This document shows, piece after piece, positions 1 to 49,683 of a DNA stretch of 62,435 bases (position 1 is its first letter; the number at the start of each line of letters is the position of its first letter). The translations under genes and the position numbers were made by a program. The notes beneath the pieces are model-generated. The model was not told the origin of the DNA, made no database searches, and was given only the letters and a program-made list of their open reading frames with translations. Origin of the DNA: a bacterium (GTDB lineage Bacteria > Patescibacteriota > JABMPQ01 > JAUVWW01); NCBI GenBank assembly GCA_030603885.1, contig JAUVWW010000005.1, forward strand, positions 1-62,435, read 5' to 3'.

Positions 1-3000
1 CGGGGTAGCAATTGAAGAGGTGGTAGAAAGAACGGCTTTAATCTTTAAAGCTGGATAAGAATAAGCGTTAATTGAAGATAGGTCAATGGTGGTTGAGGTA
101 TCAGCAGCTGAAAATCCTGAAGAATTGTCTGGAAGCTCTGAATCTGGGATTAAATCGCCACTTGAATCTAAAAGGTAATACTTTATTGATTGGCCATTCA
201 AGGTGTTGGAAATATCTACTTTTTCAAAATCTCCTACTTCAGAAGGGGTGATAGTGGAAGAAATGACCTTCTTTTGAGTCTGGCTTGGATCATAGGTGTA
301 AGTAATCGATACTGAACCTATTTCTGGGGTATTTGAGCTATCGCCGGTAGAAAGAGTGGCTCCCCATCTCAAATCCTTGCCCGAATAATCATGACTATTA
401 ACATTGGTAAAATCAATTTCCTGGCCAGAAGTAGGCGTAACCCAATTAGTGCCGTCAGTGGTAACCTGGTAACTAATTAAGGTTTGCGAAGGAGTAGTAT
501 CATTAAATGTAAACGTGGCTCGGATGACATCAATGTCAGCAACGTTTAAATCAACAGATCGACCTATTTTAGGAGATTGGTAGGATTTTTCTAGTTTTGT
601 GATATTACCATTTTGGCCAACTGCCCAACTAGTGCCAGCGTCAGCAAAATAGATAGAAAATAAAGTGTCAGTAATACTGTGACTCTGGCTGGACCAATTT
701 GAACCTCCGTCAGTGGTATAAAGGATATCAGCGTCTCCTGGTGTCGGGTATGTGCCACCCACTGCCCAGCCGTTGTTAGAATCGGTGAAAAAAACTGACC
801 ATAAATAATTAGTGGTGCCACTGGTTTGAGGAGACCAATTTGTGCCTCCGTCAGTAGTGTGAATAATGAAACCACCCCGCGCGACTGCCCAGCCATTATT
901 GGAGTCGATGAAGAAAACAGAAGTTAAAGAAAGAATGCTACCGGCAGTCTGACTTGACCAATTCAGACCTCCATCTGTGGTGCGCAAAATAACAGAGGCT
1001 TTAGGAAGTGTTGTACTACCCACTGCCCAACCAGTGTTAGAGTCAATAAAATGGACAGAAGATAGACCGCCACTAGTGCCGCTGGTTTGAGGAGACCAAT
1101 TGGAGCCGCCGTCAGTGGTATGAATAATGGTACCAGAACTACCCACTGCCCAGCCGATGTTGGAATTGGTAAAGTAAACAGACTTCAACTCATTACTAGT
1201 GCCGCTGGTCTGGGGAGACCAATTGGAGCCGCCATTAGTGGTTTTAAGAATAGTGCCAGAAGTCCCCACTGCCCAGCCGGTGTTGGAGTCGGTGAAAAAG
1301 ACAGAGTTTAAGACAATGCTTCCAGTATACTGAGTAGACCAATTAGTTCCTCCATTAGCAGTGTGAAAGATGACACCAGTTACAGGAAGTCTTGAAGAAC
1401 CCCCCACTGCCCAGCCGGTGTTAGAATCGGTGAAGAAAACAGAGTACAAGCTATAAGCTGTGGCATCGGTCTGATCAGTAATAGTAAGCGGATTAGGTAA
1501 ATCAACCCTGGTATTAGTGGTATCCCAATCAGCCGTAGTAGCTGACGCATCCTTATAACTGGCAGTAGAAAAGTCTTCGGTGAATGTATAAGAGCTGGGT
1601 TGATAATATTTATAAGCGATAGAAATATTATTTACTTCAGGAGTAACATCAGTGTCAGTAGTAGAAAGAATGGCTTTCCAGCGTAAATCTGCGCCTTGAT
1701 TAGTAAAAATATGTTCTGTACCTGAAGTAACCGTTTCCCAATTGGTTCCTCCGTCAGCTGACATTTGATAGGTAATTGTTTGGCCGTTTAAGGTTGAAGT
1801 AGCCGTTAAAGTGGCTTTAGCTATAGTAAAAACAGAAGTATTTACATTAGTAGATTGAACTATTTTAGGAGTTTGATAAAGTCGTTCTATTTTTAAGATA
1901 GTACCGGATAGACCAACTGCCCAACCATTGTCAGAATCGGCAAAGTTGACAGAGAATAAATCATTGCTAGTCCCGCTGGTCTGGCTTGACCAGGTTGTAC
2001 CTCCATCAGTAGTGTTGTAAACAACACCCCCAGTACCAACCGTCCAGCCAGTATCAGAATCAATGAAATAAATAGAGGTTAAACTATGAGAACCACTGGT
2101 TATGCTGCCCCCAGGTGACCAGTTAGTACCTCCATCAGTAGTAGAAATAACAACGCCGCCATTTGTCACTGCCCAACCCGTATTGGAATCGGCAAAGTAA
2201 ACTGAATATAAACCTCCTGCGGTCTGACTGTCCTGGGCTGACCAATTACTGCCTCCATCTGTAGTATTAACAATTGTTGGCTTACCGAGAAATGGCGCAT
2301 CACCGACTGCCCAGCCGGTGTTGGAGTCGGTAAAATAGAGGCCACGTAAAGCTACACTAACCCCACTGGTTTGAGGAGACCAATTTGAGCCGCCGTCAGT
2401 GGTATGAATAATAGTTCCATTATACCCCACTGCCCAGCCGGTGTTGGAATCGGTGAAGAAGACAGAATTTAAACGCTGACCGGTACCACTATTTTGGGTT
2501 GACCAATTTGAGCCGCCGTTACTGGTATGAACAATAGGAGTATTGCCTGTACAAGAGACACCACAATCTCCCACTGCCCAGCCGTTGTTGGAGTCGGTGA
2601 AGAAGACAGATCTTAAATTTTCGCTAGTACCACTAGTCTGAGTATCCCAATTCGAGCCGCCGTCAGTGGTGTGAATAATAAGACCACTGGCACCGACTGC
2701 CCAGCCGGTGTTGGAGTCGGTGAAGAAGACAGAAAGTAAATGATTACTAGTACCGCTGGTCTGAGAACTAATATCTATTCCCTTAGGTAAACTTACCTTC
2801 TTATTGGTTGTATCCCAGGTGGCCGTCGTATTAGTAGTATCTTTATAGGTTGTATCAGAAAAATCCTCTGAAAAATTTTGAGAAGTTAGAGCAAGTTCAA
2901 CCCTTTGATTGGTTGAATCTAGGAAACCTTCGTTTGTGGAAAGACCAATGGCATCTGGAAAAGTGTCAGTATAAGTGCCTGATCTTTGATCGTAAGTAGG

Positions 3001-28935: not shown

Positions 28936-29628
28936 TTACTTTATTCTATAGATGGTATCCTTTTTCTCCACCACAATCTTCCATTTCTTTCTTCTAGCTA
29001 CTTTATATAAATCAAGGTCAGGGTTAAAAACTATGGGATGCTCCACCATTTCCAAAAATCCAATATCTACATGGGAATCTCCTATCCCCCAAGATCCCTC
29101 GAGAGACAAATTATTTTGCTCAATAAAATCTTTTAATATTTTGTCCTTTTTCTTTGCCGCATCCAAAATGATTTTACCTGTATATTTTCCTTTGCTTGTT
29201 ACCTCAAATACAGTTCCAAAAGCAGCATCAAATTTCAGGTATCTATTATACTCTGTGACAGCTTCTTGGGGAGAGCCAGAAATAGAAACTAGGATATGAG
29301 TCTTTCTTAGCTTTTTAACTAAATTCGTAGTATAAACATAAATCCTATCTTTAAAATAAGGTATGACATCTTTTCTTAAGACTCGGATTACGTCCTTATT
29401 CTTACATCCTTTTATATATTTATTGTAAACTCTTAAAACTTCATCTATATAAGCTTGATAGGTTCCTTTTTGATTTACCCAGGCAAAATACTCACCCTCA
29501 ATTTCTTTCTTAGCTTTTCTAGGAAAAACTTTATGATAAATCAAAGATTTCATCAGCTCAATAATCAAAGTTTCTCTAAAGATAGTGCCATCGATGTCAA
29601 AGACGGCTATTTTATTTTTTCTCTTCAT
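28936..29628 (-). CDS. HAD-IB family hydrolase
   Basis: Motif I FDIDGTIF and motif IV GIGDSHVDIGFL. Confidence 0.75.
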   Translation of the reverse strand: MKRKNKIAVFDIDGTIFRETLIIELMKSLIYHKVFPRKAKKEIEGEYFAWVNQKGTYQAYIDEVLRVYNKYIKGCKNKDVIRVLRKDVIPYFKDRIYVYTTNLVKKLRKTHILVSISGSPQEAVTEYNRYLKFDAAFGTVFEVTSKGKYTGKIILDAAKKKDKILKDFIEQNNLSLEGSWGIGDSHVDIGFLEMVEHPIVFNPDLDLYKVARRKKWKIVVEKKDTIYRIK

Positions 29629-30697
29629 GTTTAGAAAATTTATTATTTTTATTGCCTACTCTCCATATTATCCAATAAAGCTTTCCTAACTTCATCAGAC
29701 CAAAATATGATAAAAACACCAGTCCTAATCCCACCAAGATCAAATCCATAATTCTCATAATAAAAATACAAGTTATCCCTGTCTGAGCTCCAAGGCCCAA
29801 TAAAGCAAAAGAAAAAGCCTGAACAGATTCATAAGTACCAAAGGCACCCGGAATAAAAGGAATCACTACCACTAGTACAGTCAAAGCATAAATAATAACA
29901 ATTTGATATAGACTTATATCCAAACCTAAAAAATAAACAATTATCTTATAACGCAATAAAGCTAGGGCGCAACTGATACAAGATAAGGCTATGCCTAAAA
30001 AGAATACTCTCTTATGGTCCTTAAAGAGAACAGAAAGGTTTTGATCAAAATTAGCTATACTTTTCTGCCAAGTTTTAAACATCCTCAATCTATCAAGATG
30101 AAGAATATGTAACACCGAAGTAACAAATCCTCGGCTTTTTCCCTTTATAAAAAGATGAAGTAGGAGATAGAGAAAAAATACTACCAAAACCAAAAGAAAA
30201 ATCTTAATTCCGCTAGATAAAAGTCTCCCAAAAAAAAGAAGAACAACTCCTAAAAGGACAACAAAACTTCCTGTCGCGCCTTCCAAAGCCTTATCCACCA
30301 CTATGGATGATAGAGCTTTAGACCAAGGAACTTTCTCTTCTTTCTTTATCATATAAGCTCGAACTGGTTCTCCTCCAACAAATAAAGATGGGGTCAGATA
30401 ACTTACTGTCCAGCCAGCTAGCTTAAAAAATAAAAGTCTAGAAAATCTTATATTGTGTCCATAGGCACGAAGAATCAATCTCCACTTTTCACAAGTAACT
30501 ATCACACTTAAAGCTGTAATAACGAAGACTAAAACAAAACCGATCAAGGGGAAAATTTCAAAATTATGAATGACTTCGTCTATCCCTATTCTTCGAAGCA
30601 AAAGATACAAAATCCCTAAACCTAAACCTATAGCAGCCACTAGGGCTATCTTTTCAGACAAAAATATCTTATTAGACTTCTTAGGATTCTCTTCCAT
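29612..30697 (-). CDS. Flippase-like / LPG-synthase-TM (UPF0104) family membrane protein
   Basis: Polytopic membrane protein with a GGEPVRAYM motif. Confidence 0.65.
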   Translation of the reverse strand: MEENPKKSNKIFLSEKIALVAAIGLGLGILYLLLRRIGIDEVIHNFEIFPLIGFVLVFVITALSVIVTCEKWRLILRAYGHNIRFSRLLFFKLAGWTVSYLTPSLFVGGEPVRAYMIKKEEKVPWSKALSSIVVDKALEGATGSFVVLLGVVLLFFGRLLSSGIKIFLLVLVVFFLYLLLHLFIKGKSRGFVTSVLHILHLDRLRMFKTWQKSIANFDQNLSVLFKDHKRVFFLGIALSCISCALALLRYKIIVYFLGLDISLYQIVIIYALTVLVVVIPFIPGAFGTYESVQAFSFALLGLGAQTGITCIFIMRIMDLILVGLGLVFLSYFGLMKLGKLYWIIWRVGNKNNKFSKHEEKK

Positions 30698-31062
30698 TAT
30701 ATCCTATATTCTTCAAATTCCACTCTTTTTTTATCTATTAAACCTTTAATCTTGTCTTGTTTCTCTGTCAGGTGTGAGTCAGCTGCCTTGAACTCAATTA
30801 ATACTATTTTATCATTCTCAAACTGAATTCCGTCAATGGGCGATCCAATAAATCTAAAATGCTGAGGATCATAAGGATAGTCTTCTAAAAAAGGTAAAAA
30901 CTGCTCAGTCATCTTCCCGTACTTTAAAGATTGGCTCTGTTTTTTGAAGGCTAGATCTTCCAGTTTTTCTTGTAAAGCCCGGTTCTTTTTCCTTTGCCAA
31001 AGCACTAATAGGATTAGGATAAAAGTTAGGGCTAGAAGAAATAGTATAATTTTCCATTCCAT
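30697..31062 (-). CDS. Endonuclease related to the archaeal Holliday junction resolvase (Endonuc_Holl-like), TM-anchored
   Basis: FRFIGSPIDGIQFENDKIVLIEFKAADSHLTEKQDKIKGLI. Confidence 0.55.
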   Translation of the reverse strand: MEWKIILFLLALTFILILLVLWQRKKNRALQEKLEDLAFKKQSQSLKYGKMTEQFLPFLEDYPYDPQHFRFIGSPIDGIQFENDKIVLIEFKAADSHLTEKQDKIKGLIDKKRVEFEEYRI

Positions 31063-31271: not shown

Positions 31272-31820
31272 CTAATACTCAGGCCAGTATTTTATGGAAT
31301 AGTCAGTCAAGCCATCTGAATCATAGAGAACAATCGAACAACGAGCAGGCTCTTTCTCAAAAACAAGATCCATCTCTGTACTGCTTGTAAGGGTCCAGCC
31401 TTTTTCTGCAAGAAGTTTCGTATAATAATCCCCAACCTCAGCCGCAGTAGCTTTTGCTTGATAACTTACTTTCTCTGACTCTTCATATTTATTCCAGGCT
31501 GTCCTTACTGAACCAGGATAACGAGGAACTTCAGTAATATCATTTCCAGTAACATCGGCTGAAGGTAAAGTAACTTCTTCTTCCTCTATTACTCCCTCAG
31601 GAATAGTTATTTTAGGAATCTGCTCTTCTAACTTTACTGCCTCTTCTTCAATTGTCTTTAATGCTTTCCTTGCTACAAACCAGCATCCTACTCCAGCTAT
31701 AAGACCTAAAACAATAATAATAGCTAAGATAATTAGTACCCATTTTAAAGCACTGCTCTTTTTGGGTGGCTGCGGGGTAGGGGTTGGAGCTGTTGGAGGA
31801 GCTTGAGTTGGCTGTTGCAT
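31272..31820 (-). CDS. Membrane-anchored hypothetical protein with a Pro-rich N-terminus
   Basis: RBS AAAGGAGGTG upstream of the ATG. TM segment WVLIILAIIIVLGLIAGVGCWF. Confidence 0.6.
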   Translation of the reverse strand: MQQPTQAPPTAPTPTPQPPKKSSALKWVLIILAIIIVLGLIAGVGCWFVARKALKTIEEEAVKLEEQIPKITIPEGVIEEEEVTLPSADVTGNDITEVPRYPGSVRTAWNKYEESEKVSYQAKATAAEVGDYYTKLLAEKGWTLTSSTEMDLVFEKEPARCSIVLYDSDGLTDYSIKYWPEY

Positions 31821-31933: not shown

Positions 31934-32059
31934 TCAGGATACTCTATAAACCACATCATTCTCTCTCACGTGCTCTTTTACCTTGAGACTAATGGATTGT
32001 CCCGCTTCAGCTTTTTCTACATTTTCACGTTCTATTTGCTTAGCCTGTTTAATCATCAT
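31934..32059 (-). pseudogene. 41-codon truncated paralog (C-terminal half only) of the EF-Tu-domain-2-like small protein; possibly still translated
   Basis: Hand translation MMIKQAKQIERENVEKAEAGQSISLKVKEHVRENDVVYRVS*. It is 23/33 identical to the C-terminus of the 42561-42833 product. The ATG lies 1 nt after the stop of the upstream gene. Confidence 0.55.
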
Positions 32060-32060
32060 G

Positions 32061-33401
32061 CTAATTTTCAATCTTTTCCTTCTTTTCCCATTTTAGACTA
32101 TCATCCCTAACCCTCACATTAAACTTCAATAAATCCATCACATCTTGTTTCCACTGCCGGGGCGAAGAATGAATTATTCTGCCAATAAAAAGGCTTCTCA
32201 AGGTTTGAAGGGCCGGTATCTTTTGTATAGCAAATTTATATTTTGCATACCTTGGCTTTTCTAATTCTTCATTTGGTAAATAGATCGGTTCTCTTCTAAA
32301 GTTTATAGCCAGCATACAGCGATTTATTTGATTGATAAAATCATCCACTTCTCTGTCCAGATCTTCTATATTCTTAAAATTTGGATGATCTTTCCTGCTT
32401 ACTATTCTGAAAAAGTAAGTCGCTTTTCCTCCCCCTTCGGTTGATGTTGCCTCCATTGCTACCACATTCCCTGGCTTTTTTGGATCTGTACTATAAATTG
32501 GAATTAAAAACCAGATATATTCTCCTGTTAAATCCCCTAGCAGTCCCCGCTTTAAACCGATAGACATCTTTTCTTTCTGGGCTAGAGATTTTAAAAAATC
32601 GTATTCTTCCTTTACCCCAGCAACTTCTAACTTTTTTTCCAATTCCACCCACAGTTCAGGAGAAATTGATTCTATATCGCTTCTTCTGGCAGCTTTGCCT
32701 TCTTTCATAAATCGGGCTGCTCTCCTTATAATAGATGGATTCGCCTTAGGCAGTAATTCCTTAAGCGACGATTGGACTTTCAAAGAAAGTTCATTGATTA
32801 TTTCAGAAAGTGTCCTTTTAAAAGGATCAAATTGTGCTCCCATTTTGGAAAAGATAATTTTTTCTCCAAATTCTGTAGTAATAATAAGGGTATAATTTTC
32901 CTCATGAATTTCTAAAAGATCACTGTAAGGGATCCTCGTAAACTCTCCTTTTTCTGGTATTATAACAATGGCTGTTTCGTACAAGCGCGATTCACATTTC
33001 CCTCTTTGCTTTTCTTTTCCCTTTTCATCAATATAGACAAATTCTGCTTTCAGGCCTGATTTTCTAATCGTCTCGTGCATTAGCATATCTTTCAAAAGTA
33101 TTTCATTTCGTAGTTTAGAAAGAATCCTTAAGAAGTCTTCGTAGCGGTATCCAAGATTAAAAAGGATAAGTTTTTCTTTTGAGGTCAAAGTGAGATAAAC
33201 TTTATAGTTGCTTTCAGAAATTTCAAGAATATCCCTAAAGGGAAAAAATAATGCCTGGCCAAACTTTGGTAGAATGGAGAGATTCTTTTCATCGAGTCTA
33301 GCCTGGGCTTCTCCTTTTCCAATCCCTTTCCCATCTTTGTCATTCAAAGAATAACTCAAAGAACATTCCATGATGGTTGTTTGTTTGTCTTCTTCTTCCA
33401 T
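32061..33401 (-). CDS. Hypothetical 446-aa protein with an internally duplicated roughly 57-aa domain
   Basis: Repeat 1: LSILPKFGQALFFPFRDILEISESNYKVYLTLTSKEKLILFNLGYRYEDFLRILSKL. Repeat 2: AIVIIPEKGEFTRIPYSDLLEIHEENYTLIITTEFGEKIIFSKMGAQFDPFKRTLSEI. No family recognised. Confidence 0.6.
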   Translation of the reverse strand: MEEEDKQTTIMECSLSYSLNDKDGKGIGKGEAQARLDEKNLSILPKFGQALFFPFRDILEISESNYKVYLTLTSKEKLILFNLGYRYEDFLRILSKLRNEILLKDMLMHETIRKSGLKAEFVYIDEKGKEKQRGKCESRLYETAIVIIPEKGEFTRIPYSDLLEIHEENYTLIITTEFGEKIIFSKMGAQFDPFKRTLSEIINELSLKVQSSLKELLPKANPSIIRRAARFMKEGKAARRSDIESISPELWVELEKKLEVAGVKEEYDFLKSLAQKEKMSIGLKRGLLGDLTGEYIWFLIPIYSTDPKKPGNVVAMEATSTEGGGKATYFFRIVSRKDHPNFKNIEDLDREVDDFINQINRCMLAINFRREPIYLPNEELEKPRYAKYKFAIQKIPALQTLRSLFIGRIIHSSPRQWKQDVMDLLKFNVRVRDDSLKWEKKEKIEN

Positions 33402-33403
33402 AT

Positions 33404-34069
33404 TTATCCAAGTTTATCTCCGCACTCACCGCAGAATCGGATACCAGTAGGATTTTTTGCCCCACATTTTGGACAGATAACAAATTCAAGTTTTGCTCCA
33501 CAATTTACGCAGAATTTTCCAGTCCCAGCTGGTTTTCCACAAGCAGGACAAATAGTCACTTTCTTTTCTATTTTTCCAGTAAAGACCTGCGTCCCTGCTG
33601 CCTTTGCTTTTATATCCTGAGCCATTTTTTCTGCTCTCGCTGCGGCTACCTCTACTGCTTCTCTTGGAGCACAAGTTACACAAAGATTGGCTTGCTCATT
33701 CCAACAATTCTCACAGACCCATTTTGTACATTTCGGACAGCGGGAGAAATGGGCCTTGGCTTCGTTCTGGGCTAATCCAAAAGCAGCTTCATGCTCTTTA
33801 TGCCAGGCCGGGGTCATCCCTTGAAATCTCTCACTAATAACATCGGTTGCTCTCTCAGCTCCATAACCAATACTATATTTTCCCGCTATCTGGGCCGCTG
33901 CGCCAAATAGTCTCCCTGCTCCTCTCAAAAGACGTCCTCTCCTATAGGTCTTCGAGGCTACGAACTTAGTTTTGTAACCATCTCGGCAGTTGTCGCAGTA
34001 AAAAGTAAATTGGAATCCTGCCTCAGTCGAATTGTCAGCGAAGTTTTTTGTAAATGGTTGTAATGGCAT
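33404..34069 (-). CDS. Multi-zinc-ribbon protein (8 CxxC pairs)
   Basis: CxxC pairs CDNC, CPKC, CENC, CVTC, CPAC, CVNC, CPKC, CGEC. The stop is 2 nt from the start of the downstream gene. Confidence 0.7.
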   Translation of the reverse strand: MPLQPFTKNFADNSTEAGFQFTFYCDNCRDGYKTKFVASKTYRRGRLLRGAGRLFGAAAQIAGKYSIGYGAERATDVISERFQGMTPAWHKEHEAAFGLAQNEAKAHFSRCPKCTKWVCENCWNEQANLCVTCAPREAVEVAAARAEKMAQDIKAKAAGTQVFTGKIEKKVTICPACGKPAGTGKFCVNCGAKLEFVICPKCGAKNPTGIRFCGECGDKLG

Positions 34070-34084
34070 AAGCCTAATTATTAA

Positions 34085-34423
34085 TTATTTTAGCAATTTA
34101 CCACACTTTATACATTTGTCACTACCAAGGGGTTGTTCTGTTTTACAATGAGGACAAATGACTACCAAACAAGCGCCACAATGATCACAATAATTCCCAA
34201 AGAAAGTCACCTTGCCACATTTCGGACAAGTAATTTCTAAGGACAGACCACAATTGGAACACTTCTTCCAATCCCTCTGGATCGGATTTTTACATTTTGG
34301 ACATCTTAGCGGTCCTAAAGGATTTACCTTTCCGCAGAAAGGACAAACATTAGAATTTGGCGGGACGAGTTTTTCGCAGTAGCGACAAGGATGTTTATAT
34401 CCTAAAGCACTTTGGGTTGCCAT
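34085..34423 (-). CDS. Quadruple zinc-ribbon protein (8 CxxC pairs in 112 aa)
   Basis: CxxC pairs CRYC, CPFC, CPKC, CSNC, CPKC, CDHC, CPHC, CIKC. Confidence 0.7.
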   Translation of the reverse strand: MATQSALGYKHPCRYCEKLVPPNSNVCPFCGKVNPLGPLRCPKCKNPIQRDWKKCSNCGLSLEITCPKCGKVTFFGNYCDHCGACLVVICPHCKTEQPLGSDKCIKCGKLLK

Positions 34424-34509
34424 AATATTCCTTACTTTTTAATACTAACACTAGGGCTCAAAGTCAAAGTTTTGAGAAGGGTTACTTGAAAATTTTATTA
34501 TATGTTTTA

Positions 34510-35883
34510 TTAAGATTTTTCTGAACCTTTTCTTCTCTTTGCTAATCCTCCTATAACTATAATCAATCCCAAGATTACCAGGCCTAAGACTATCCAAATG
34601 ATAGTGGTAGTAGAAATCTTTAAACCTTCTTTTACCTCTTCTCCTCTTGAGATAGCTTCTTGAGATTTAGAGATATAATCTTGAGCTTCTATGAGTTGAG
34701 GATAAAGCCTTAAAGCTTTCTCAAACTCTTCTATAGCTGGAGTGTAGTGCTTCTTCCAATAGAGATCTAAGGCTTTTTTCCAATGTTCATCTGTCAGTCC
34801 TTGTTTGTTTTCTACATTTTTTTCTTTTAGAAATTCTGAAGCTATACTGGAAGGTCTAAGATAGGAAAAGCCTATTTTCTGTTCTCCCTGTTCTGTAGCT
34901 ACTAAAGAAGCAATACCAATTACTTCTCCTTTCTCATTAAATGCTGGTCCTCCACTGTTTCCATAGGTTAAAGCAGCATCAGTCTGCAAAACTTCAGAAC
35001 CATCAGTCAAAGTCTTTTTGGCACTAATAATCCCCGAGGTCACTGTTGGCTCTAAATGACTTTCTTTGCTTAAGAACTCCTGGAAAGTAGCTACTCCTGG
35101 ATAGCCAATAACAGTGGCTTTATCCCCAACCTGAACCTGACTTGAATCTCCTAATTTAACTGTAGGAAGATTTTCACCAGAAACTTTCAAAATAGCAATG
35201 TCTTTGCCAATCACCTCTCCTTCTTTTGAGAAACCTTCAAAATCTACTACCTTTACATCAGCTTTCATCCCCTGTTCTATAGGTATCTTCTTTCCTGAAA
35301 GAAAGGCTCCTTGTTGAATATAAACTTTCCTTTCTATATTATCTAATTTGATTTCTCCCATTTTATAGCCTTTGAAAAATTCTAAAACCATAGCTTCTCG
35401 AGAACCAAATTCTTTTATCACCTCAGGCATCATTAGATTCATCTCTTCCTCGGTAGGATCTCGACCAGCCATACTCCTAAATACAAACCTGGTTAGATCT
35501 TCCATAATAGTATCTGCAGCTGAAGATAGAGCGCTCCAAGCAAGCAAATCATCAGGCATATGGACTACATGACCATTAGTTAGAATGTAGCCATCGGGAG
35601 AGATAATAAATCCTGAACCACAGCCACCAGTTTTTGCTTCGTAAGTCCTTCCAGCCAGTTCAGGAACGCCAGCTGCTTGAGCTCCAGCAGTCTGAATAAT
35701 AATAGACATAGAATAGTAGGTGCTAATAAAAACCACCCCAGGCTTATTTAAAATCATGTTCTTCTGAGCAGCTTCAGGTTCTTGGGCAAAAGAGTGCATT
35801 GGCAATACAAGCATTACCGATAAAGCTAGAATTAAAGACAATGACCAGATCCTTTTCCCTCCTATTTTTTTCTTGGTTTGCAT
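34510..35883 (-). CDS. Secreted trypsin-like (S1C/HtrA-type) serine protease lacking PDZ, with a helical repeat region and a C-terminal TM anchor
   Basis: Signal peptide. Triad contexts LTNGHVV, KDIAILKV and GNSGGPAF. C-terminal TM segment IIWIVLGLVILGLIIVIGGL. RBS GAGGAG. Confidence 0.85.
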   Translation of the reverse strand: MQTKKKIGGKRIWSLSLILALSVMLVLPMHSFAQEPEAAQKNMILNKPGVVFISTYYSMSIIIQTAGAQAAGVPELAGRTYEAKTGGCGSGFIISPDGYILTNGHVVHMPDDLLAWSALSSAADTIMEDLTRFVFRSMAGRDPTEEEMNLMMPEVIKEFGSREAMVLEFFKGYKMGEIKLDNIERKVYIQQGAFLSGKKIPIEQGMKADVKVVDFEGFSKEGEVIGKDIAILKVSGENLPTVKLGDSSQVQVGDKATVIGYPGVATFQEFLSKESHLEPTVTSGIISAKKTLTDGSEVLQTDAALTYGNSGGPAFNEKGEVIGIASLVATEQGEQKIGFSYLRPSSIASEFLKEKNVENKQGLTDEHWKKALDLYWKKHYTPAIEEFEKALRLYPQLIEAQDYISKSQEAISRGEEVKEGLKISTTTIIWIVLGLVILGLIIVIGGLAKRRKGSEKS

Positions 35884-35969
35884 AGATTTCTCCTCTCTAA
35901 GTTAAATTATTAATCTATTTTTATTTTAGATATTTATTTTGGCTAATTTGAGCTTTATTCTATATATTT

Positions 35970-35998
35970 ATTATAGCAAATAAAAAATGGTTTGTCTA
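35970..35998 (-). promoter_or_regulatory. Promoter of the protease/zinc-ribbon operon
   Basis: Minus strand: TAGACA (35993-35998), 17 nt, TATAAT (35970-35975). Confidence 0.5.
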
Positions 35999-40066: not shown

Positions 40067-42403
40067 TTAAGATTTTTTATGTAAAGCTTGTTTGAGCACC
40101 TCATCCATATGCTTGACAAAGATAAACTTCAGATCACCTCTTACATTTTTTGGAATTTCTTCTAGGTTCTTTTTATTATCAAAAGGAAGAATCACTGTTT
40201 TTATTCCTGCTCTATGAGCAGCTAGCACTTTCTCTTTTATTCCTCCAATCTCAAGTACTCTACCTCGCAAAGTAATTTCTCCTGTCATACCTACTCCTCT
40301 TTTTACTAGCTTTCCAGTCGAATTAGAAACAATGGCTGTGGCCATGGCAATACCAGCTGATGGTCCATCTTTGGGAATAGCACCGGCAGGAACATGAATA
40401 TGCAAATCAAAATCTTTATAGAACGTCTCTTTAATACCAAGCTTTTTAGCTTTAGATTTGGCATAAGTAAAAGCAGCTTGGACTGATTCCTTCATCACCT
40501 TACCCAAGTGTCCGGTTAAAATCAACTTTCCTTTTCCTGGCATTCTGGCCGATTCAACAAATAGAATCTCTCCACCAGCAGTTGTCCAGGCAAGGGCTGT
40601 GGCTACTCCAACCTCGTCTTTTTTCTCTGCTAAAATAAGCCTGAATTTGCGTGGTCCTAAGTATTTGTGAAGATCTGAAATACCAATCTTATAAGTCTTT
40701 TTAACTTTATTCTTCTCGGCAATCTCTCTGATAACTTTTCTGCAGACTTTAGCCAGCTCTCGTTCAAGATCCCTCACCCCTGCTTCTCTGGTATATTCTC
40801 TAATAACTGACCTAATAGCTCCATCTGTGATAGTAAAATATTTTTTGTTTAAAGCATGGGATTTAATGAGTTTAAGTATCAGAAACTCCTTAGCAATATG
40901 GAATTTCTCTTCTTCGGTATACCCTGGAAACTTGATTATCTCCATACGATCAAGTAAAGCTGGAGGTATAGTATCAGTTATATTTCCTGTGGTAATAAAC
41001 ATTACATCAGAAAGATCAAAGGGAATCTCTATGTAATGATCAGAAAAAGCAAAATTCTGCTCAGGGTCTAAGGCTTCAAGTAAAGCTGATGAGGGATCAC
41101 CTCTAAAATCTTTTCCTACTTTATCAATCTCATCCAGCATAAATACAGGATTTTTTGTTCCGGCAGTCTTAACTCCTTGGACAATCCGACCAGGAAGAGC
41201 TCCTACATAAGTACGCCTGTGTCCTCTAATTTCTGCTTCATCTCTAATACCACCTAAAGACATACGGACAAACTTACGTCCCAAAGCCCGAGCTATAGAT
41301 TTTCCCACTGAGGTCTTTCCTGTACCTGGGGGGCCAATAAAACACAAAATAGGTCCCTTAATCTTTCCTGCCATTTTACATACGGCTAAATATTCTAGCA
41401 TTCTCTCTTTGACATCTTTTAGACCATAATGGTCTTCATCAAGAATCTTTTTTGCTTTTTTAATATCTACTTTAGCTTCTGATTTTTTAGCCCAGGGTAG
41501 CTCAGCTAACCAATCAAGATAAGTTCTAATATAGGATATCTCTGGAGAAAAAGAAGGCATAGCCTTAAGACGATCAAGCTCTTTTATGGCTACCTTTTTT
41601 GCCTCCTTAGGCATGCCTGCTGCCTCAAGCTTCTTTCTAAGCTCTTGGATCTCTGATCTTTCTTCCATGCCTAGCTCTTTTTGAATAGCCTTCATTTGCT
41701 CTCTAAGTATAACCTCTCTTTGCATTTTTCCTAACTCTTTAGTAGTTCTTCTTTGAATCTTCTTGGCCACTTGAAGAACTTCTAGCTTGCGACCGATATA
41801 GGAATTTATCAGTTTAAGACGGTCTTTAAGATTAAAGGCTTCAAGAACTCTCTGTTTTTCCGCTGGTTTCAGATTCAGAGAGAAAGCAATCATGTCCGCC
41901 CTTTGAGAAGGAGTAGGACGACCAAATATAATAGATAAAGTCTCCAGGGGCACAGGCATTCCTAGGGCAATGCATCTTTTAAACCGGTCTTCCAGGTTGT
42001 GCATCAAAGCTTCGGCCTCTACCGTCATTTTGGCTATCTCGGGAACCTCTTCTGTTTTTACTTTAAAAAAGGGAGTCTCTTGGGTAAAGCCCAATATTTT
42101 TACCCTAGACCTTCCTTGAACAATACAAGCAATAGTTCCATCTGGCAATCTGTGGCTTTCTAAAACTCTAACTAGACATCCTACAGAATAAAGATCTCCT
42201 GATTTGGGTTTATCAATGGTCTTATCTTTTTGCAAGACAATCACTACCATTCTGTCTTTAGTCAAAGTAACTTCAGCTGCTTTCTTGGATCCTGGCCTTT
42301 TAAAAGCCATGGGAAGACCAACATTTGGAAAAACAACAGTCTCACGAGAGGCAATTAAAGGATATTCTTTTCCTTTTTTAGGTGTACTAAATAAAGGTGA
42401 CAT
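40067..42403 (-). CDS. lon: ATP-dependent Lon protease
   Basis: LON N-domain. Walker [10 protein letters not shown]. Proteolytic PKDGPSAGIAMATA. Confidence 0.97.
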   Translation of the reverse strand: MSPLFSTPKKGKEYPLIASRETVVFPNVGLPMAFKRPGSKKAAEVTLTKDRMVVIVLQKDKTIDKPKSGDLYSVGCLVRVLESHRLPDGTIACIVQGRSRVKILGFTQETPFFKVKTEEVPEIAKMTVEAEALMHNLEDRFKRCIALGMPVPLETLSIIFGRPTPSQRADMIAFSLNLKPAEKQRVLEAFNLKDRLKLINSYIGRKLEVLQVAKKIQRRTTKELGKMQREVILREQMKAIQKELGMEERSEIQELRKKLEAAGMPKEAKKVAIKELDRLKAMPSFSPEISYIRTYLDWLAELPWAKKSEAKVDIKKAKKILDEDHYGLKDVKERMLEYLAVCKMAGKIKGPILCFIGPPGTGKTSVGKSIARALGRKFVRMSLGGIRDEAEIRGHRRTYVGALPGRIVQGVKTAGTKNPVFMLDEIDKVGKDFRGDPSSALLEALDPEQNFAFSDHYIEIPFDLSDVMFITTGNITDTIPPALLDRMEIIKFPGYTEEEKFHIAKEFLILKLIKSHALNKKYFTITDGAIRSVIREYTREAGVRDLERELAKVCRKVIREIAEKNKVKKTYKIGISDLHKYLGPRKFRLILAEKKDEVGVATALAWTTAGGEILFVESARMPGKGKLILTGHLGKVMKESVQAAFTYAKSKAKKLGIKETFYKDFDLHIHVPAGAIPKDGPSAGIAMATAIVSNSTGKLVKRGVGMTGEITLRGRVLEIGGIKEKVLAAHRAGIKTVILPFDNKKNLEEIPKNVRGDLKFIFVKHMDEVLKQALHKKS

Positions 42404-42560: not shown

Positions 42561-42833
42561 TTATTCTTCTATTACTTTGTATACGGTATCTCCTTCCCGG
42601 GCATGTTCTGTAACTTTTAAGCCAACAGACTGTCCTTTTTCAGCTTTTTCTATTGACTCCCGCTCTATCTGCATAGATTCCACTTTCTGTGTAAAATCTG
42701 AAGTGGCACCCTTAACATGGATAGTATCACCTCGGGACAGCTCATCATTCAATTCCACTACTGCTACTCCAATATTAGTAAAATAGTGAGTGACCTTACC
42801 TATTTCTTTTTCTTTTGGTATTGCTTCTTCCAT
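42561..42833 (-). CDS. Small translation-elongation-factor-like (EF-Tu domain 2-like beta-barrel) protein
   Basis: IGKVTHYFTNIGVAVVELNDELSRGDTIHVKG...GQSVGLKV...GDTVYKV. 90 aa. Confidence 0.6.
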   Translation of the reverse strand: MEEAIPKEKEIGKVTHYFTNIGVAVVELNDELSRGDTIHVKGATSDFTQKVESMQIERESIEKAEKGQSVGLKVTEHAREGDTVYKVIEE

Positions 42834-45802: not shown

Positions 45803-45892
45803 TGGCGGAGAGGGGAGGATTCGAACCTCCGGTACGGTTGCCCGCACTTCGCTTTTCGAGAGCGACCCAATAAACCACTCTGGCACCTCTCC
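45803..45892 (-). tRNA. tRNA-Ser (anticodon CGA), class II, CCA encoded
   Basis: Hand-folded. Anticodon stem TCGCT/AGCGA with loop CTCGAAA. Long variable arm. T-loop GGAGGTTCGAATCCTCC. Confidence 0.9.
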
Positions 45893-45893
45893 A

Positions 45894-47144
45894 CTAAAAA
45901 AGTTTAGCTTGTTTTACCCCTTCTTCACCTTCTTTAAAAATCTGAACTTTTCCATATTCTCCATCATAACCTGGTAGAATTTCAACTTCACCTTCTCTTA
46001 CTCTTCTTATTCCCTCTAAAATTTTGGGATGTAAAGAGGCTTGTAACTTACCAGGTGGAAGCTCTAATAGGATTTCAAATTCAGATCCGTAATTTTGCAC
46101 TAGATTTTGGTACTCTTCTTCTACAGCTTTGGTATTTTTTTGCTGACCCAAAGCAGAAGCTATTATTTCGGCTAAAGGAACAAGGTGTTTAGAAGAAATA
46201 GCCCTCTTTGGTATAAATCCTTCTTTCCTATCTGCTAGCTTTTCTACCCGGTGCATGACTCCTACTGTTAGAGGTTTTTTACACTTAGGACAAAGATAAT
46301 TTGCCTTCTTGGTCTGGCTTGGACTAAGCCTAACATCACAATTTCTATGTCCATCAAAATGATATTTGCCTTCTTGAGGAAAAAATTCGATGGTGAAGAG
46401 AAACTTTCCTTTCTCAGTCTGTTTATTCTTTATTAAATCTGTCAAATTAGTGTAACTTAAATCCTCGAGTTCAAAAGCATTTGCCTCTCTACCTATATTT
46501 TTAGGTGAGTGAGCATCAGAATTACTAATTAAAGTATATTTATCCAAAGCCGAAAGTCTCCAATTCATTTCTGGATCTGAAGAAAGTCCAGTCTCCAGAG
46601 CATAAATATTATTGGACAAATCTTCAAAGCATTCCTCTACTAAATCAAAGCCTGAATTAGCTCCGAACAAAGAGAACCAGGGAGTCCAGATGTGGGCTGG
46701 AACAACCAGACAATCTTTTGAGGTATCTAAAACTATTTTCAAAAGCTCTTTGGCATCTAAACCCAAAATAGGTCTTCCATCTGATTTTAGATTTCCAATC
46801 CAAGAAAACTGGGTATTAATTTTATCTACTTCTTTAAATGAAGGAGCAAATATGACAAGGTGAATTTTGCGAGTCCTTCCTCCTTTGGAATAAATACAGC
46901 TAATTTCGGAAGTCAAAATGAATCTGGTATCTGTATTTGAGTTTCTTAGTTTAAAAAAACCTTCTTCTTGAGGTTCTAACTTTTCTTTAAGTTCTGAAAG
47001 CCATCCTGGATGAGTAAAGTCACCAGTACCAAGAATGTTTATTCCTTTAGTCTTTGCCCACTGATCAAGGTGCTCCAAATCCATATCATGTGATGTGGCT
47101 CTGGAGTAATGAGAGTGAATATGAAAATCAGCGTAAATAGGCAT
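45894..47144 (-). CDS. Endonuclease Q-like PHP-domain protein (TIGR00375 family)
   Basis: N-terminus MPIYADFHIHSHYSRATS. Zn finger CPKCKKPLTVGVMHRV. Confidence 0.65.
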   Translation of the reverse strand: MPIYADFHIHSHYSRATSHDMDLEHLDQWAKTKGINILGTGDFTHPGWLSELKEKLEPQEEGFFKLRNSNTDTRFILTSEISCIYSKGGRTRKIHLVIFAPSFKEVDKINTQFSWIGNLKSDGRPILGLDAKELLKIVLDTSKDCLVVPAHIWTPWFSLFGANSGFDLVEECFEDLSNNIYALETGLSSDPEMNWRLSALDKYTLISNSDAHSPKNIGREANAFELEDLSYTNLTDLIKNKQTEKGKFLFTIEFFPQEGKYHFDGHRNCDVRLSPSQTKKANYLCPKCKKPLTVGVMHRVEKLADRKEGFIPKRAISSKHLVPLAEIIASALGQQKNTKAVEEEYQNLVQNYGSEFEILLELPPGKLQASLHPKILEGIRRVREGEVEILPGYDGEYGKVQIFKEGEEGVKQAKLF

Positions 47145-47146
47145 TA

Positions 47147-47338
47147 TTATTCGACGAGTCTTTTAAATACTAGTTTGAAATCTTTCTTTTCTGGAATCAT
47201 TTGAATTAGCTCCCATCCTTTCTTGCCCAGTTCATTTAAAACAGAAGTGATATCTTCACTTCTTGGCTTTTCTTCTAAAATAGAAGGTGGTCTAATCTCA
47301 CTCAGATTCTTGATTAGATACTCGTATTTTGGGGTCAT
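47147..47338 (-). CDS. Small DUF4177-like protein
   Basis: LNELGKKGWELIQMIP pattern. 63 aa. Confidence 0.4.
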   Translation of the reverse strand: MTPKYEYLIKNLSEIRPPSILEEKPRSEDITSVLNELGKKGWELIQMIPEKKDFKLVFKRLVE

Positions 47339-47353
47339 AATTAAGATTTAAAA

Positions 47354-47427
47354 TGGGCGCTTGAGGACTCGAACCTCAGACCTCCTCGGTGTAAACGAGA
47401 CGCTCTAACCAACTGAGCTAAGCGCCC
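47354..47427 (-). tRNA. tRNA-Val (anticodon TAC)
   Basis: Hand-folded cloverleaf. Anticodon loop TTTACAC. No encoded CCA. Confidence 0.9.
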
Positions 47428-47428
47428 T

Positions 47429-47515
47429 TGGTGCCCAGGGCGGGACTCGAACCCGCACGCTCAAAATGAGCATGGCTCCTCAAGCCATCGTGTAAACCAA
47501 TTCCACCACCTGGGC
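47429..47515 (-). tRNA. tRNA-Leu (anticodon GAG), class II, CCA encoded
   Basis: Anticodon stem ATGGC/GCCAT with loop TTGAGGA. Long variable arm. Confidence 0.9.
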
Positions 47516-47525
47516 CTAAATATGT

Positions 47526-48086
47526 TTATTTTGTTTTCTCTTCGGCCTTAGTTTCTACCTTTTTCTCTCCTTTCTTGACTTGGGCTTTTGTCCCTTCTTT
47601 CTTTTCTTCTGGTTTTGCTTTCTTTTCCTTTTTAGTCTCTTCTGGTTTAGCTTTCTTCTCTTCTTTAGTCTTTTTCGGTTTTGCCTTCTTTTTCTCTGTC
47701 TTTTCTTCGTACTTCAACCGTCCCAGTTCCTCAGCTGTTAATTTCTTCTCTTTCAATCTAGCTTCCTTTTCCTGTTTCTTGCGCAAATAATAAAGTTTGG
47801 CTCTTCTTACTTTGCCTCTCTTTATCACTTCTATCTTGGATAGAGCAGGCAATTGACAAGGATAAGTTCTTTCCACACCGATACCACCCGAGGTAATCTT
47901 ACGTACAGTTATAGTTCCACTCATGCCACGCCCTCCCTTTAGCCTAATTACCGTTCCTTCAAAAACCTGAATTCTTTCCTTCTCTTTCTCTTTAATCTTT
48001 TCATGAATTCTAACTGTATCTCCAGGTCTAATGTCAGGGATCTTTTTTGTAATTTGAGTTTGTTCAAAAGTTTTCAGGTAATCCAT
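47526..48086 (-). CDS. rplS: 50S ribosomal protein L19 with a roughly 70-aa Lys-rich repeat tail
   Basis: The L19 core is [13 protein letters not shown]...[11 protein letters not shown]. The tail is [33 protein letters not shown]. Confidence 0.92.
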
Positions 48087-48141
48087 ACAAAAATAAAAAT
48101 CTCTTTAATCCTTATTATTTTACTCTAAAAGTTAATTAGTG

Positions 48142-48714
48142 TCAACTGGTTTTAAGTTCTTTTCGAATGATAGAAAGAACCTTTTTTATAGCTTGTTCCA
48201 ACTTATCTTGTTCGTTTATTACTACATAGTCATATTTTTCTTGATGGGCCATTTCCCTTTTAGCATTAGCTAAACGTAACTTTAATTCCTTCTCTGACAT
48301 TTTACCTCGGGCTTGGATTCGGGGCACAAGTTCATCCAAAGTTTTTGGCCTAATGAAAATAGAAATAGCTTGGGGCATTTTCTTTTCTATCTGCAATGTG
48401 CCTTGAACGTCGATATTAAGTAAGACATTACTTCCTTTTCTAAGCAGACTCTCTACTGTTTTTTTGTGGGTACCATAGTAATGATCATGAACCCGAGCCC
48501 ATTCAAGAAATTCTTTATTTTTGATCTTCTCTCTAAATTCCTTCTCTGATATATAATACATAATTTTATCTTCTCTTTCTTTCTCTCTTTTTGCTCTAGT
48601 TGTATAAGTCACTGCCGGAGATAATCCTGGTATTTTTTCTAACACACTTTCGGCAATTGAAGATTTTCCTACCCCTGAGGGCCCGGAAATAATTATTAAT
48701 TTACCTCTTCTCAT
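48142..48714 (-). CDS. gmk: Guanylate kinase (canonical length)
   Basis: IIISGPSGVGKSS, TTR, LLNIDVQG. Confidence 0.85.
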   Translation of the reverse strand: MRRGKLIIISGPSGVGKSSIAESVLEKIPGLSPAVTYTTRAKREKEREDKIMYYISEKEFREKIKNKEFLEWARVHDHYYGTHKKTVESLLRKGSNVLLNIDVQGTLQIEKKMPQAISIFIRPKTLDELVPRIQARGKMSEKELKLRLANAKREMAHQEKYDYVVINEQDKLEQAIKKVLSIIRKELKTS

Positions 48715-49393
48715 ACCTTAAAGTTAGCTTTAGAAGAATAGATTTTAGTTCTTTTGGTAATTCAGCTTTAAACTCTGCTGTCTTCCCGCTGGGTAGCCGT
48801 AATTTTAAATATCGAGCATGAAGAAATTGTCTAGAAATAGAATAGGGAAATTTCTTTCTTTTAAATTTGTATATTTTATCTCCTACAATAGGATAACCTA
48901 TTTTATGTAAATGAACTCTAATCTGATGGGTTCTTCCAGTTTTAGGTTTTGCCTCTACTAAGGTAAAATCGTTATAGTATTCAATGACTCGATAATCTGT
49001 CTCAGCAGCTTTGCCCTCGAGCCCCAAGCCAATCTTTAGCCCTTTTTGTGTTATGTGATAGACAATTTTCCCCTTTTTGTCTTTTATTCTTCCAAAAACT
49101 AGGGCTATATATTTTTTTGTAATTTTTCTATTTTTAAACTGCTGGACAAGATACTGGTAGGCTCTACTATTCTTAGCCACGATCATTAGGCCAGAAGTAT
49201 CTTTATCTAGACGGTGAACAATGCCTGGTCGCAAGAGACTGCCTACTTCTTTTATTTTTGGACAATGTTTTATTAGTAAAGAAACTAAAGTTTTTTTCTC
49301 TTTCTTTGCTGTTGGGTGAACTAAAAGACCAGCCGGTTTGTTTAATACTATCACATCTTTATCTTCATAAATAATATCCAGTTTATTCTTCAT
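48701..49393 (-). CDS. RluA-family pseudouridine synthase (no S4 domain)
   Basis: HRLDKDTSGLMIVAK and GRTHQIRVHL. Confidence 0.9.
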   Translation of the reverse strand: MKNKLDIIYEDKDVIVLNKPAGLLVHPTAKKEKKTLVSLLIKHCPKIKEVGSLLRPGIVHRLDKDTSGLMIVAKNSRAYQYLVQQFKNRKITKKYIALVFGRIKDKKGKIVYHITQKGLKIGLGLEGKAAETDYRVIEYYNDFTLVEAKPKTGRTHQIRVHLHKIGYPIVGDKIYKFKRKKFPYSISRQFLHARYLKLRLPSGKTAEFKAELPKELKSILLKLTLRYEKR

Positions 49394-49432
49394 TTTAAAA
49401 ATTTATCCAAAGCAAAATGCTTGGATTTTTAA

Positions 49433-49509
49433 TGGTGGGCGATTGAGGATTTGAACCTCAGACCTCTCGCATGTGAAACGAACGCTCTAACCAACTGAGC
49501 TAATCGCCC
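49433..49509 (-). tRNA. tRNA-Val (anticodon CAC), CCA encoded
   Basis: Hand-folded. Anticodon loop TTCACAT. Confidence 0.88.
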
Positions 49510-49586
49510 TGGTGGGCGGCACAAGACTCGAACTTGTGACCTTCTCGATGTCACCGAGACGCTCTAACCAATTGAGCTAGCCGCCC
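49510..49586 (-). tRNA. tRNA-Val (anticodon GAC), CCA encoded
   Basis: Hand-folded. Anticodon stem TCTCG/CGAGA with loop GTGACAT. Confidence 0.88.
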
Positions 49587-49607
49587 TTTTTAACTTTTAA
49601 CTTCGCA

Positions 49608-49683
49608 TGGTGGGCCCGGATGGATTTGAACCATCGACATCGACCTTATAAGGATCGCGCTCTAACCACTGAGCTACGGGCCC
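49608..49683 (-). tRNA. tRNA-Ile (anticodon TAT), CCA encoded
   Basis: Hand-folded sequence GGGCCCGTAGCTCAGTGGTTAGAGCGCGATCCTTATAAGGTCGATGTCGATGGTTCAAATCCATCCGGGCCCACCA. Anticodon stem CGATC/GGTCG with loop CTTATAA. Confidence 0.8.

Follow-up and report, generated by a model that had tools for sequence, protein, structure and literature searches.

The stretch of DNA analysed here (the window) is a patescibacterial contig of 62,435 nt (JAUVWW010000005.1, assembly GCA_030603885.1). Four genes follow one another on its minus strand: a gene for an S1C protease (34510–35883; 457 amino acids, aa), a gene for a protein with four zinc ribbons (34085–34423; 112 aa), a second zinc-ribbon gene (33404–34069; 221 aa) and a gene for a 446-aa protein, here called P446 (32061–33401). 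An earlier reading of the sequence alone (the original prediction) took these genes as one operon; its four open reading frames (ORFs) and its spacings of 86, 15 and 2 nt match the ORF calls exactly, but in other genomes linkage is kept for three of the four genes only. Judged by sequence comparison, the two zinc-ribbon genes and the P446 gene (the trio, or cassette) are the conserved unit, inherited and transferred together, and the HtrA-like protease gene appears to be an adjacent gene, a recent neighbour that lies outside the conserved cassette.

All three trio genes are found in 72 out of 88 loci anchored on P446, and most of the other loci are cut by contig ends. Pairwise distances also correlate between the three proteins (r = 0.56–0.67). 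The zinc-ribbon pair was found alone in four loci with full flanks; in one of these metagenome-assembled genomes (MAGs) P446 is encoded on another scaffold. The original prediction noted that the last three genes look translationally coupled; the trio is a real, conserved and translationally tight module (gaps of 15 and 2 nt).

The protease itself is much as it was described, a secreted S1C enzyme with a helical region, a C-terminal transmembrane segment and no PDZ domain. It matches Pfam Trypsin_2 (2e-27) and has the catalytic residues His105, Asp228 and Ser310, a hydrophobic signal-like segment near the N-terminus (residues 14–33), a TPR-like helical region (a weak Pfam match to TPR_2 at residues 366–396) and a C-terminal transmembrane segment (residues 425–447). 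It shares with the HtrA/DegP S1C proteases the Trypsin_2 fold, the His-Asp-Ser triad with GNSGGP and the exported location, but differs from them by an insert of ∼120 aa between His105 and Asp228, the TPR-like tail and the transmembrane anchor; it falls outside HtrA/DegP/DegQ, as the Pfam scan finds no PDZ domain and the score against the Do family of serine endopeptidases (TIGR02037) is 119.4 bits, for a cutoff of 416.2. Within the protease family, identity falls off as is usual for a lineage-restricted protein (88, 71, 69 ... 53%). One of the few named relatives is from a Candidatus Torokbacteria MAG (59%), a weak pointer to a host from a candidate phylum or of CPR-like kind (CPR, Candidate Phyla Radiation). 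No homologue of the protease was found beside the trio in ∼150 other loci, and in a sister genome (85–88% nucleotide identity) the protease and the trio are on different contigs. Comparative support is thus absent for the proteolysis-triggered signalling that had been proposed; co-orientation and short gaps in a single genome made an unrelated protease resemble the lead gene of an operon.

Sister-genome comparison and regulatory sites

In the sister genome the trio (locus L024) follows Lon-MgtC. The protease orthologue of the same sample (88% identical) is on another contig, followed by DUF4349 and a zinc-ribbon/transmembrane protein, and the transmembrane region of the latter matches the product of a 182-aa gene at 31272–31820 of the window. 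The block of the window that is homologous to the L024 trio runs from 34434 to 32030. It follows from this arrangement that the trio block moved in between the protease gene and the 182-aa gene in the window lineage; the trio was relocated recently beside an unrelated protease, and an accessory gene, p350, was lost on the way. The region 11371–12607 of L024 is missing from the window: p350 is deleted, and 93 nt of a Peptidase_U32_C-like gene remain. This remnant (31947–32039, minus strand; 86% nucleotide identity to L024 12607–12699) is the 3′ end of a 91-aa gene and accounts for the truncated gene relic that had been noticed at the end of the operon. It was carried along with the cassette and marks a downstream rearrangement and deletion scar, so the acquisition suggested in the original prediction can be kept in the form of a block that moved in the window lineage and dragged the relic along. 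The insertion of the block may also have truncated the 182-aa gene. The p350 protein of the sister genome shares its N-terminal region with the FecR-bearing C5 accessory proteins (see below), without the FecR domain.

The sister homologue of the 182-aa transmembrane protein (L183 3276–4028) has 250 aa, with an N-terminal zinc ribbon (MKKCPKCGANL...CSKCGAKI) and the same Pro-rich and transmembrane segment; in the window protein the ribbon is absent and the C-terminal domain is different. An intact 90-aa Peptidase_U32_C-like gene is found at 42561–42833, upstream of the Lon gene (40067–42403), and its product is 77% identical to the 91-aa protein of L024 (p91). The genome thus holds a U32_C-like paralogue as well as the dragged-along fragment, with the relic as the closer copy (86% at the nucleotide level).

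The promoter that had been proposed upstream of the protease gene is present as a sequence (TAGACA-17-TATAAT with TG, 35970–35998, minus strand; 11 of 12 matches), but such sites are no commoner than in shuffled DNA: we counted 14 consensus-type matches in the region and 11.4 are expected from shuffles, a number not above chance. A second promoter-like site (TTCAGA-17-TATAAT, 34497–34525, minus strand; 10 of 12 matches) is in the 86-nt gap, and homology to the trio block of the sister genome begins at 34434. This putative site could drive the trio without the protease promoter.

The GC richness of the zinc-ribbon genes had been read as a sign of acquisition. The excess, however, sits at codon position 2 (GC content 0.50, from Cys, Gly and Ala codons), and at codon position 3 the GC content is host-like (0.31–0.34, as compared with 0.26–0.34 in neighbouring genes); the excess is one of amino-acid composition, and a foreign-DNA signal was rejected. 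No direct or inverted repeats bracketing the trio were found in the window, and the idea of a circular element or of flanking repeats was dropped for that reason. Neither a riboswitch nor any other known RNA was found with Rfam in the window or in 19 related loci.

Proteins of the cassette

P446 contains an internal duplication, as had been noticed by eye: residues 21–104 and 125–208 share 37% identity over 84 aa (E = 3e-18). Its AlphaFold2 model (pLDDT 86.3, pTM 0.83) has two PH-like domains, at residues 9–106 (33084–33377, minus strand) and 112–216 (32754–33068, minus strand), each a seven-stranded antiparallel beta-sandwich followed by a C-terminal helix (strands in 9–81 and helix 84–106 for the first, 112–185 and 188–216 for the second; pLDDT ∼90). 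Foldseek matches many PH domains with a probability of 1.00, which places both domains in the PH-like fold superfamily and agrees with the guess that the repeated domain might be bPH/GRAM-like. Matches of the PH pair (overall E-values of 1e-6 to 1e-4) include BBS5 (4e-6), Pob3 (7.5e-6), Spt16, SSRP1 and CheF (5e-5); the TM-scores of the significant tandem-PH matches are only 0.13–0.39.

The C-terminal half of P446 (residues 217–446; 32064–32753, minus strand) is modelled as a helical segment plus an alpha/beta domain and has a net charge of +9. The most conserved motifs of the protein, GxKRGLxG, GNxxAxEA, G(K/R)ATYFFR, NFRREPIYL and FIGRVIH, are all in this half, even among sequences of 28–56% identity. 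No fold match for it was found by Foldseek against PDB and BFVD (with the full model) or by hidden Markov model (HMM) search of PDB, and PDB HMM searches with the family alignments gave nothing useful. P446 is a scaffold of two PH-like domains in tandem, joined to a novel domain rich in Arg and Lys, and the charge of the C-terminal half suggests a pocket for an anionic ligand.

P446 was called an orphan, which holds for family models, as it matches no Pfam (E ≤ 0.1) or NCBIfam family, but not for homologues. A word-indexed search gave 1022 relatives, of which the best 120 are 65–92% identical, without Pfam domain and unnamed or 'hypothetical'; an exhaustive HMMER search gave 802 clusters (50% identity), with E < 1e-30 for 284. 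Ten longer relatives have no Pfam domain either. Forms of 640–723 aa carry a C-terminal extension. Of the five such proteins that were read, four have an unannotated domain of ∼225 aa there, and one (P0045) has a sequence similar to the C-terminal region of the C8 accessory protein.

The ∼225-aa extension, fused to P446 or following it (L009, L010, L013, L020; P0003, P0022, P0057), ends with ...(V/T/I)RG, mostly GVRG. In the FecR-domain accessory proteins the motif GVRGTxF runs on beyond this end, so that the extension amounts to half of a FecR-like domain; strand complementation by another subunit is a possibility. Stop-codon read-through into the next gene was considered and rejected (the stop is TAA or TGA and there is no consistent in-frame continuation).

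Both zinc-ribbon proteins have eight CxxC pairs in the window (16–17 Cys residues per protein), which bears out the count made before, with the caveat that two pairs of the 221-aa protein, CENC and CVTC, are not conserved in its homologues. The invariant CxxC pairs suggest that the proteins bind zinc. The 112-aa protein belongs to the double zinc ribbon family DZR (PF12773; 57 bits, cutoff 27), but DZR and the related PF13240 describe a zinc-ribbon domain without assigned function, not a system. For the 221-aa protein we collected 1258 homologues, with 67–78% identity among those listed, and its conservation reaches far beyond the Cys residues, as seen from the invariant columns of the alignment. 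The AlphaFold2 model of this protein is moderate (pLDDT 73, and below 50 over residues 55–83), and structure and profile searches of PDB returned only generic zinc ribbons. Residues 45–63 (33881–33937, minus strand) form an amphipathic cationic stretch with the highest hydrophobic moment of the protein (0.64) and a net charge of +3; the pattern is conserved, the model has low confidence there, and any function of the stretch is putative.

Distribution, transfer and genomic contexts

The cassette spans at least 350–550 species, including members of the CPR, DPANN and Asgard archaea, as well as bacteria of over 25 phyla. Bacterial hosts are found in Actinomycetota, Chloroflexota, Bacillota, Aminicenantes, Elusimicrobia, Bacteroidales, Ignavibacteriota, Planctomycetota, Nitrospira, Spirochaetes, Patescibacteria and many candidate phyla. 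Archaeal hosts include Asgard lineages (Borr-, Thor-, Frey-, Njord- and Atabeyarchaeia) as well as Bathyarchaeia, Thermoplasmata, Nitrososphaeria, Methanomethylicota, Altiarchaeota, Micrarchaeia and Ainarchaeum. One carrier, Thermospira aquatica, has a species name, seems to be in culture and has a complete chromosome (CP073355.1, cassette at roughly 113.7–117.1 kb), and thus offers an experimental entry point; the trio proteins are small and soluble-looking.

Homologues are 50–80% identical to the trio proteins of the window, across great taxonomic distances: the P446 protein is 79% identical to that of an Actinomycetota MAG, 78% to that of Melioribacter and 75% to an Asgard protein. The closest archaeon–bacterium pair of P446 sequences is 81% identical, and six out of 24 archaeal P446 sequences have a bacterial nearest neighbour. 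By comparison, the best match of the window Lon protein among 185,579 GTDB species is only 54% identical, so that GTDB has no close representative of the host; the trio proteins evolve about as slowly as Lon. P446 identities of 75–81% next to 54% for Lon imply that the trio has been transferred repeatedly between phyla and between domains. Few modules that evolve so slowly offer as striking a case of exchange between domains, which raises the question of which activity is both useful and compatible in such different cells.

No vehicle of transfer is visible in viral and plasmid collections, among neighbouring integrases or in repeats of the window. P446 has no relatives in IMG/VR (2.9 M contigs), INPHARED (50,697 phage records) or PLSDB (72,556 plasmid records), matches of the trio to PHROG are weak (E > 1e-3), and no recurrent integrase is found among the 92 operon-like neighbours of the trio; the cassette has no mobility gene of its own.

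Flanking genes vary between loci. FecR is the only recurrent Pfam family among the 92 neighbours (10 out of 92), and apart from it the adjacent genes are mutually unrelated. Accessory proteins fall into a FecR-domain protein of ∼450 aa, a protein of ∼375 aa and the ∼225-aa extension fused to P446; some loci also have genes for small lipoproteins or a CsgG/FlgO-like protein. The window has no FecR gene. The slot beside the trio often holds exported proteins in other loci, and transmembrane segments are modestly enriched in genes adjoining the trio (23 of 50, versus 271 of 862; one-sided Fisher test, p = 0.026).

Assembly often stops a few hundred bases or less from the outer edge of the cassette, also in contigs of 48–281 kb (e.g. 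L002, L003, L009, L011 and L076). By a rough count this concerns about one third of 86 loci, and five of the ∼42 contigs of at least 20 kb. This pattern suggests that strains are rearranged at the locus or that shared sequence there interrupts assembly.

Candidate functions of the cassette

The original prediction stated that the gene combination matches no system that can be named, and for the trio this is still the case. No database names it, none of its three proteins maps to a characterised family, no trio protein has a match in PADLOC-DB v2 even at E ≤ 0.1, and full-text searches of the literature found no description of the cassette, with Asgard Znr_PH_CC_SB/Vps36 as the sole analogue. 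The cassette corresponds to no known type of system: it is a widespread set of three genes without family model, name or structure.

Three comparisons are informative. The Asgard Znr_PH_CC_SB protein and yeast Vps36 (GLUE + NZF) combine a PH domain with zinc fingers as membrane adaptors (PMC11188069). By analogy, the trio may likewise be a cytoplasmic adaptor, expected on the membrane, that joins PH-like domains to small zinc modules, and the PH domain of Vps36 (2cay_B) is among the Foldseek matches of P446. But the trio has a tandem PH pair on one protein and its ribbons on two further proteins, neither a winged-helix pair nor a steadiness box was detected in it, and Foldseek aligns the PH part only. 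Snf7/ESCRT-III and Vps4 are not among the 25 commonest Pfam families in the 92 neighbours, and the trio is mostly bacterial and horizontally mobile. We therefore regard the likeness as an analogy only and do not place the trio among ESCRT-II Vps36-like adaptors.

Apart from CheF (PDB 7ovp), an adaptor of archaeal chemotaxis, no tandem-PH protein in the list of Foldseek matches is described as prokaryotic (CheF: E = 5e-5 over 331 aligned columns). CheF is a cytoplasmic adaptor, as P446 would be, and the PH part of neither has enzymatic domains. P446 does not belong to the CheF family, however: it has no Pfam match (E ≤ 0.1), TM-scores are low (0.18/0.23), P446 has an extra conserved domain of 230 aa, and che or archaellum genes are not among the same 25 neighbour families. 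The best structural matches of all (P446 residues ∼9–216, E-values of 4e-6 to 2.5e-5, probabilities of 0.9–1.0) are to double-PH modules of eukaryotes, in the middle domains of the FACT subunits Pob3 and Spt16 and in BBS5, but these share only 9–12% sequence identity and low TM-scores, a similarity at the level of fold, and their partners (histones and the BBSome) are eukaryotic.

Taken together, a co-transferred trio, an incidental protease and a complex at the membrane face is the explanation that we consider best, at about even chances. The mechanism, as a component of it, is more tentative and rather doubtful in its details. The three trio proteins would form a single zinc-dependent complex, located in the cytoplasm and active on the inner face of the membrane; the PH pair of P446 would be the docking platform and its basic C-terminal pocket would bind an anionic ligand, which might be nucleic acid, the head-group of a lipid or a small phosphorylated molecule. 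The link to the envelope would be made by FecR-domain or exported accessory proteins, which are optional. Several observations weigh against this picture. The trio proteins of the window have no transmembrane segment or signal peptide, and the enrichment of transmembrane segments among the neighbours is weak. The high positive charge and the zinc-ribbon arrays would fit nucleic-acid binding at least as well. A lipid-specific function of the PH domains is unlikely, because archaeal lipids differ from bacterial ones.

It is conceivable, though we would not count on it, that the trio is an unrecognised domain-independent machine. Its tandem-PH scaffold would carry a new fold, for ligand binding or catalysis, and have two multi-zinc-ribbon partners; its mode of action would be the same in the cytoplasm of bacteria and of archaea, and it would have moved between the two domains as a promoter-to-stop unit. 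If true, the trio could belong to a new class of stress or immunity systems at the membrane surface, or be the prokaryotic equivalent of the PH-plus-zinc-finger adaptors in eukaryotic membrane trafficking.

The alternative that survives best is a nucleic-acid-handling complex, in which the basic zinc-ribbon proteins would bind DNA or RNA and P446 would be a loading or chaperoning platform like FACT Pob3/Spt16 and Rtt106; we hold it to be possible but not probable. Tandem zinc ribbons are classic nucleic-acid binders, and here they come as arrays in positively charged proteins. The double-PH modules of Pob3 and Spt16 are among the top Foldseek matches (7.5e-6 to 2.5e-5), and a universal target would explain how a cassette that is portable between archaea and bacteria functions in both. 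However, the 92 neighbours include no recurrent nuclease, helicase, polymerase or RNA-processing gene, Rfam elements are absent from the 19 loci, variants anchored in the membrane exist, and TM-scores in the range given above speak for a generic tandem-PH similarity.

We think it improbable that the trio is an anti-phage defence or addiction cassette, with P446 sensing infection through its PH and C-terminal parts and the zinc-ribbon proteins as effectors or regulators. Its patchy distribution shaped by horizontal transfer, its different positions in close relatives and the many contigs that break at its edges would be expected of such a cassette; AbiE is beside it in two loci, and an rve integrase and small unannotated ORFs are nearby in Thermospira aquatica. 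But defence genes make up only two out of 92 adjacent genes, PADLOC matches are lacking, viral, phage and plasmid collections do not contain the cassette, and its proteins have no recognisable nuclease, NTPase, protease or pore-forming effector domain. Its Lon-like slow evolution is unusual for conflict genes, and it is kept in tiny CPR and DPANN genomes, amid housekeeping genes.

The four-gene model, with cytoplasmic zinc-ribbon and PH proteins that are triggered or processed by an exported protease anchored in the membrane, is very unlikely and, on present comparisons, largely refuted. The co-orientation of the genes, the short gaps and the good promoter-like site upstream of the protease gene are what suggested it, and the exported proteins often found beside the trio elsewhere mean that an envelope partner is not absurd. 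Against it are the separate contigs of the sister genome, the ∼150 loci without a protease homologue, the second promoter-like site inside the 86-nt gap and the topology, with an extracytoplasmic catalytic domain on one side and trio proteins that carry no export signal on the other. Equally hard to credit is a metal or redox module of anaerobes (Cys-rich proteins that buffer or sense Zn/Fe or switch thiols, with P446 as output): the eight CxxC pairs per protein, hosts that are MAGs of sediment, peat, hot-spring and bioreactor lineages (anaerobic habitat judged from names), and adjoining radical-SAM (3 out of 92) and cation-efflux (1 out of 92) genes would suit it, but CxxC spacing and Pfam matches are those of structural zinc ribbons, conservation far exceeds the Cys residues, and no oxidoreductase, transporter or metalloregulator recurs.

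Other features of the window were noted in passing. A 121-aa protein (30697–31062) combines an N-terminal transmembrane helix with an endonuclease domain resembling archaeal Holliday junction resolvases (Endonuc_Holl, 9e-19), and the last base of its stop codon (30697) doubles as the first base of a downstream LPG_synthase_TM gene (29612–30697); an LPG_synthase_TM gene is also found downstream of the cassette in the Ainarchaeum locus (L030). Six tRNA genes are on the minus strand at 45803–49683 (Ser-CGA, Val-TAC, Leu-GAG, Val-CAC, Val-GAC and one with a TAT anticodon, called as Ile).

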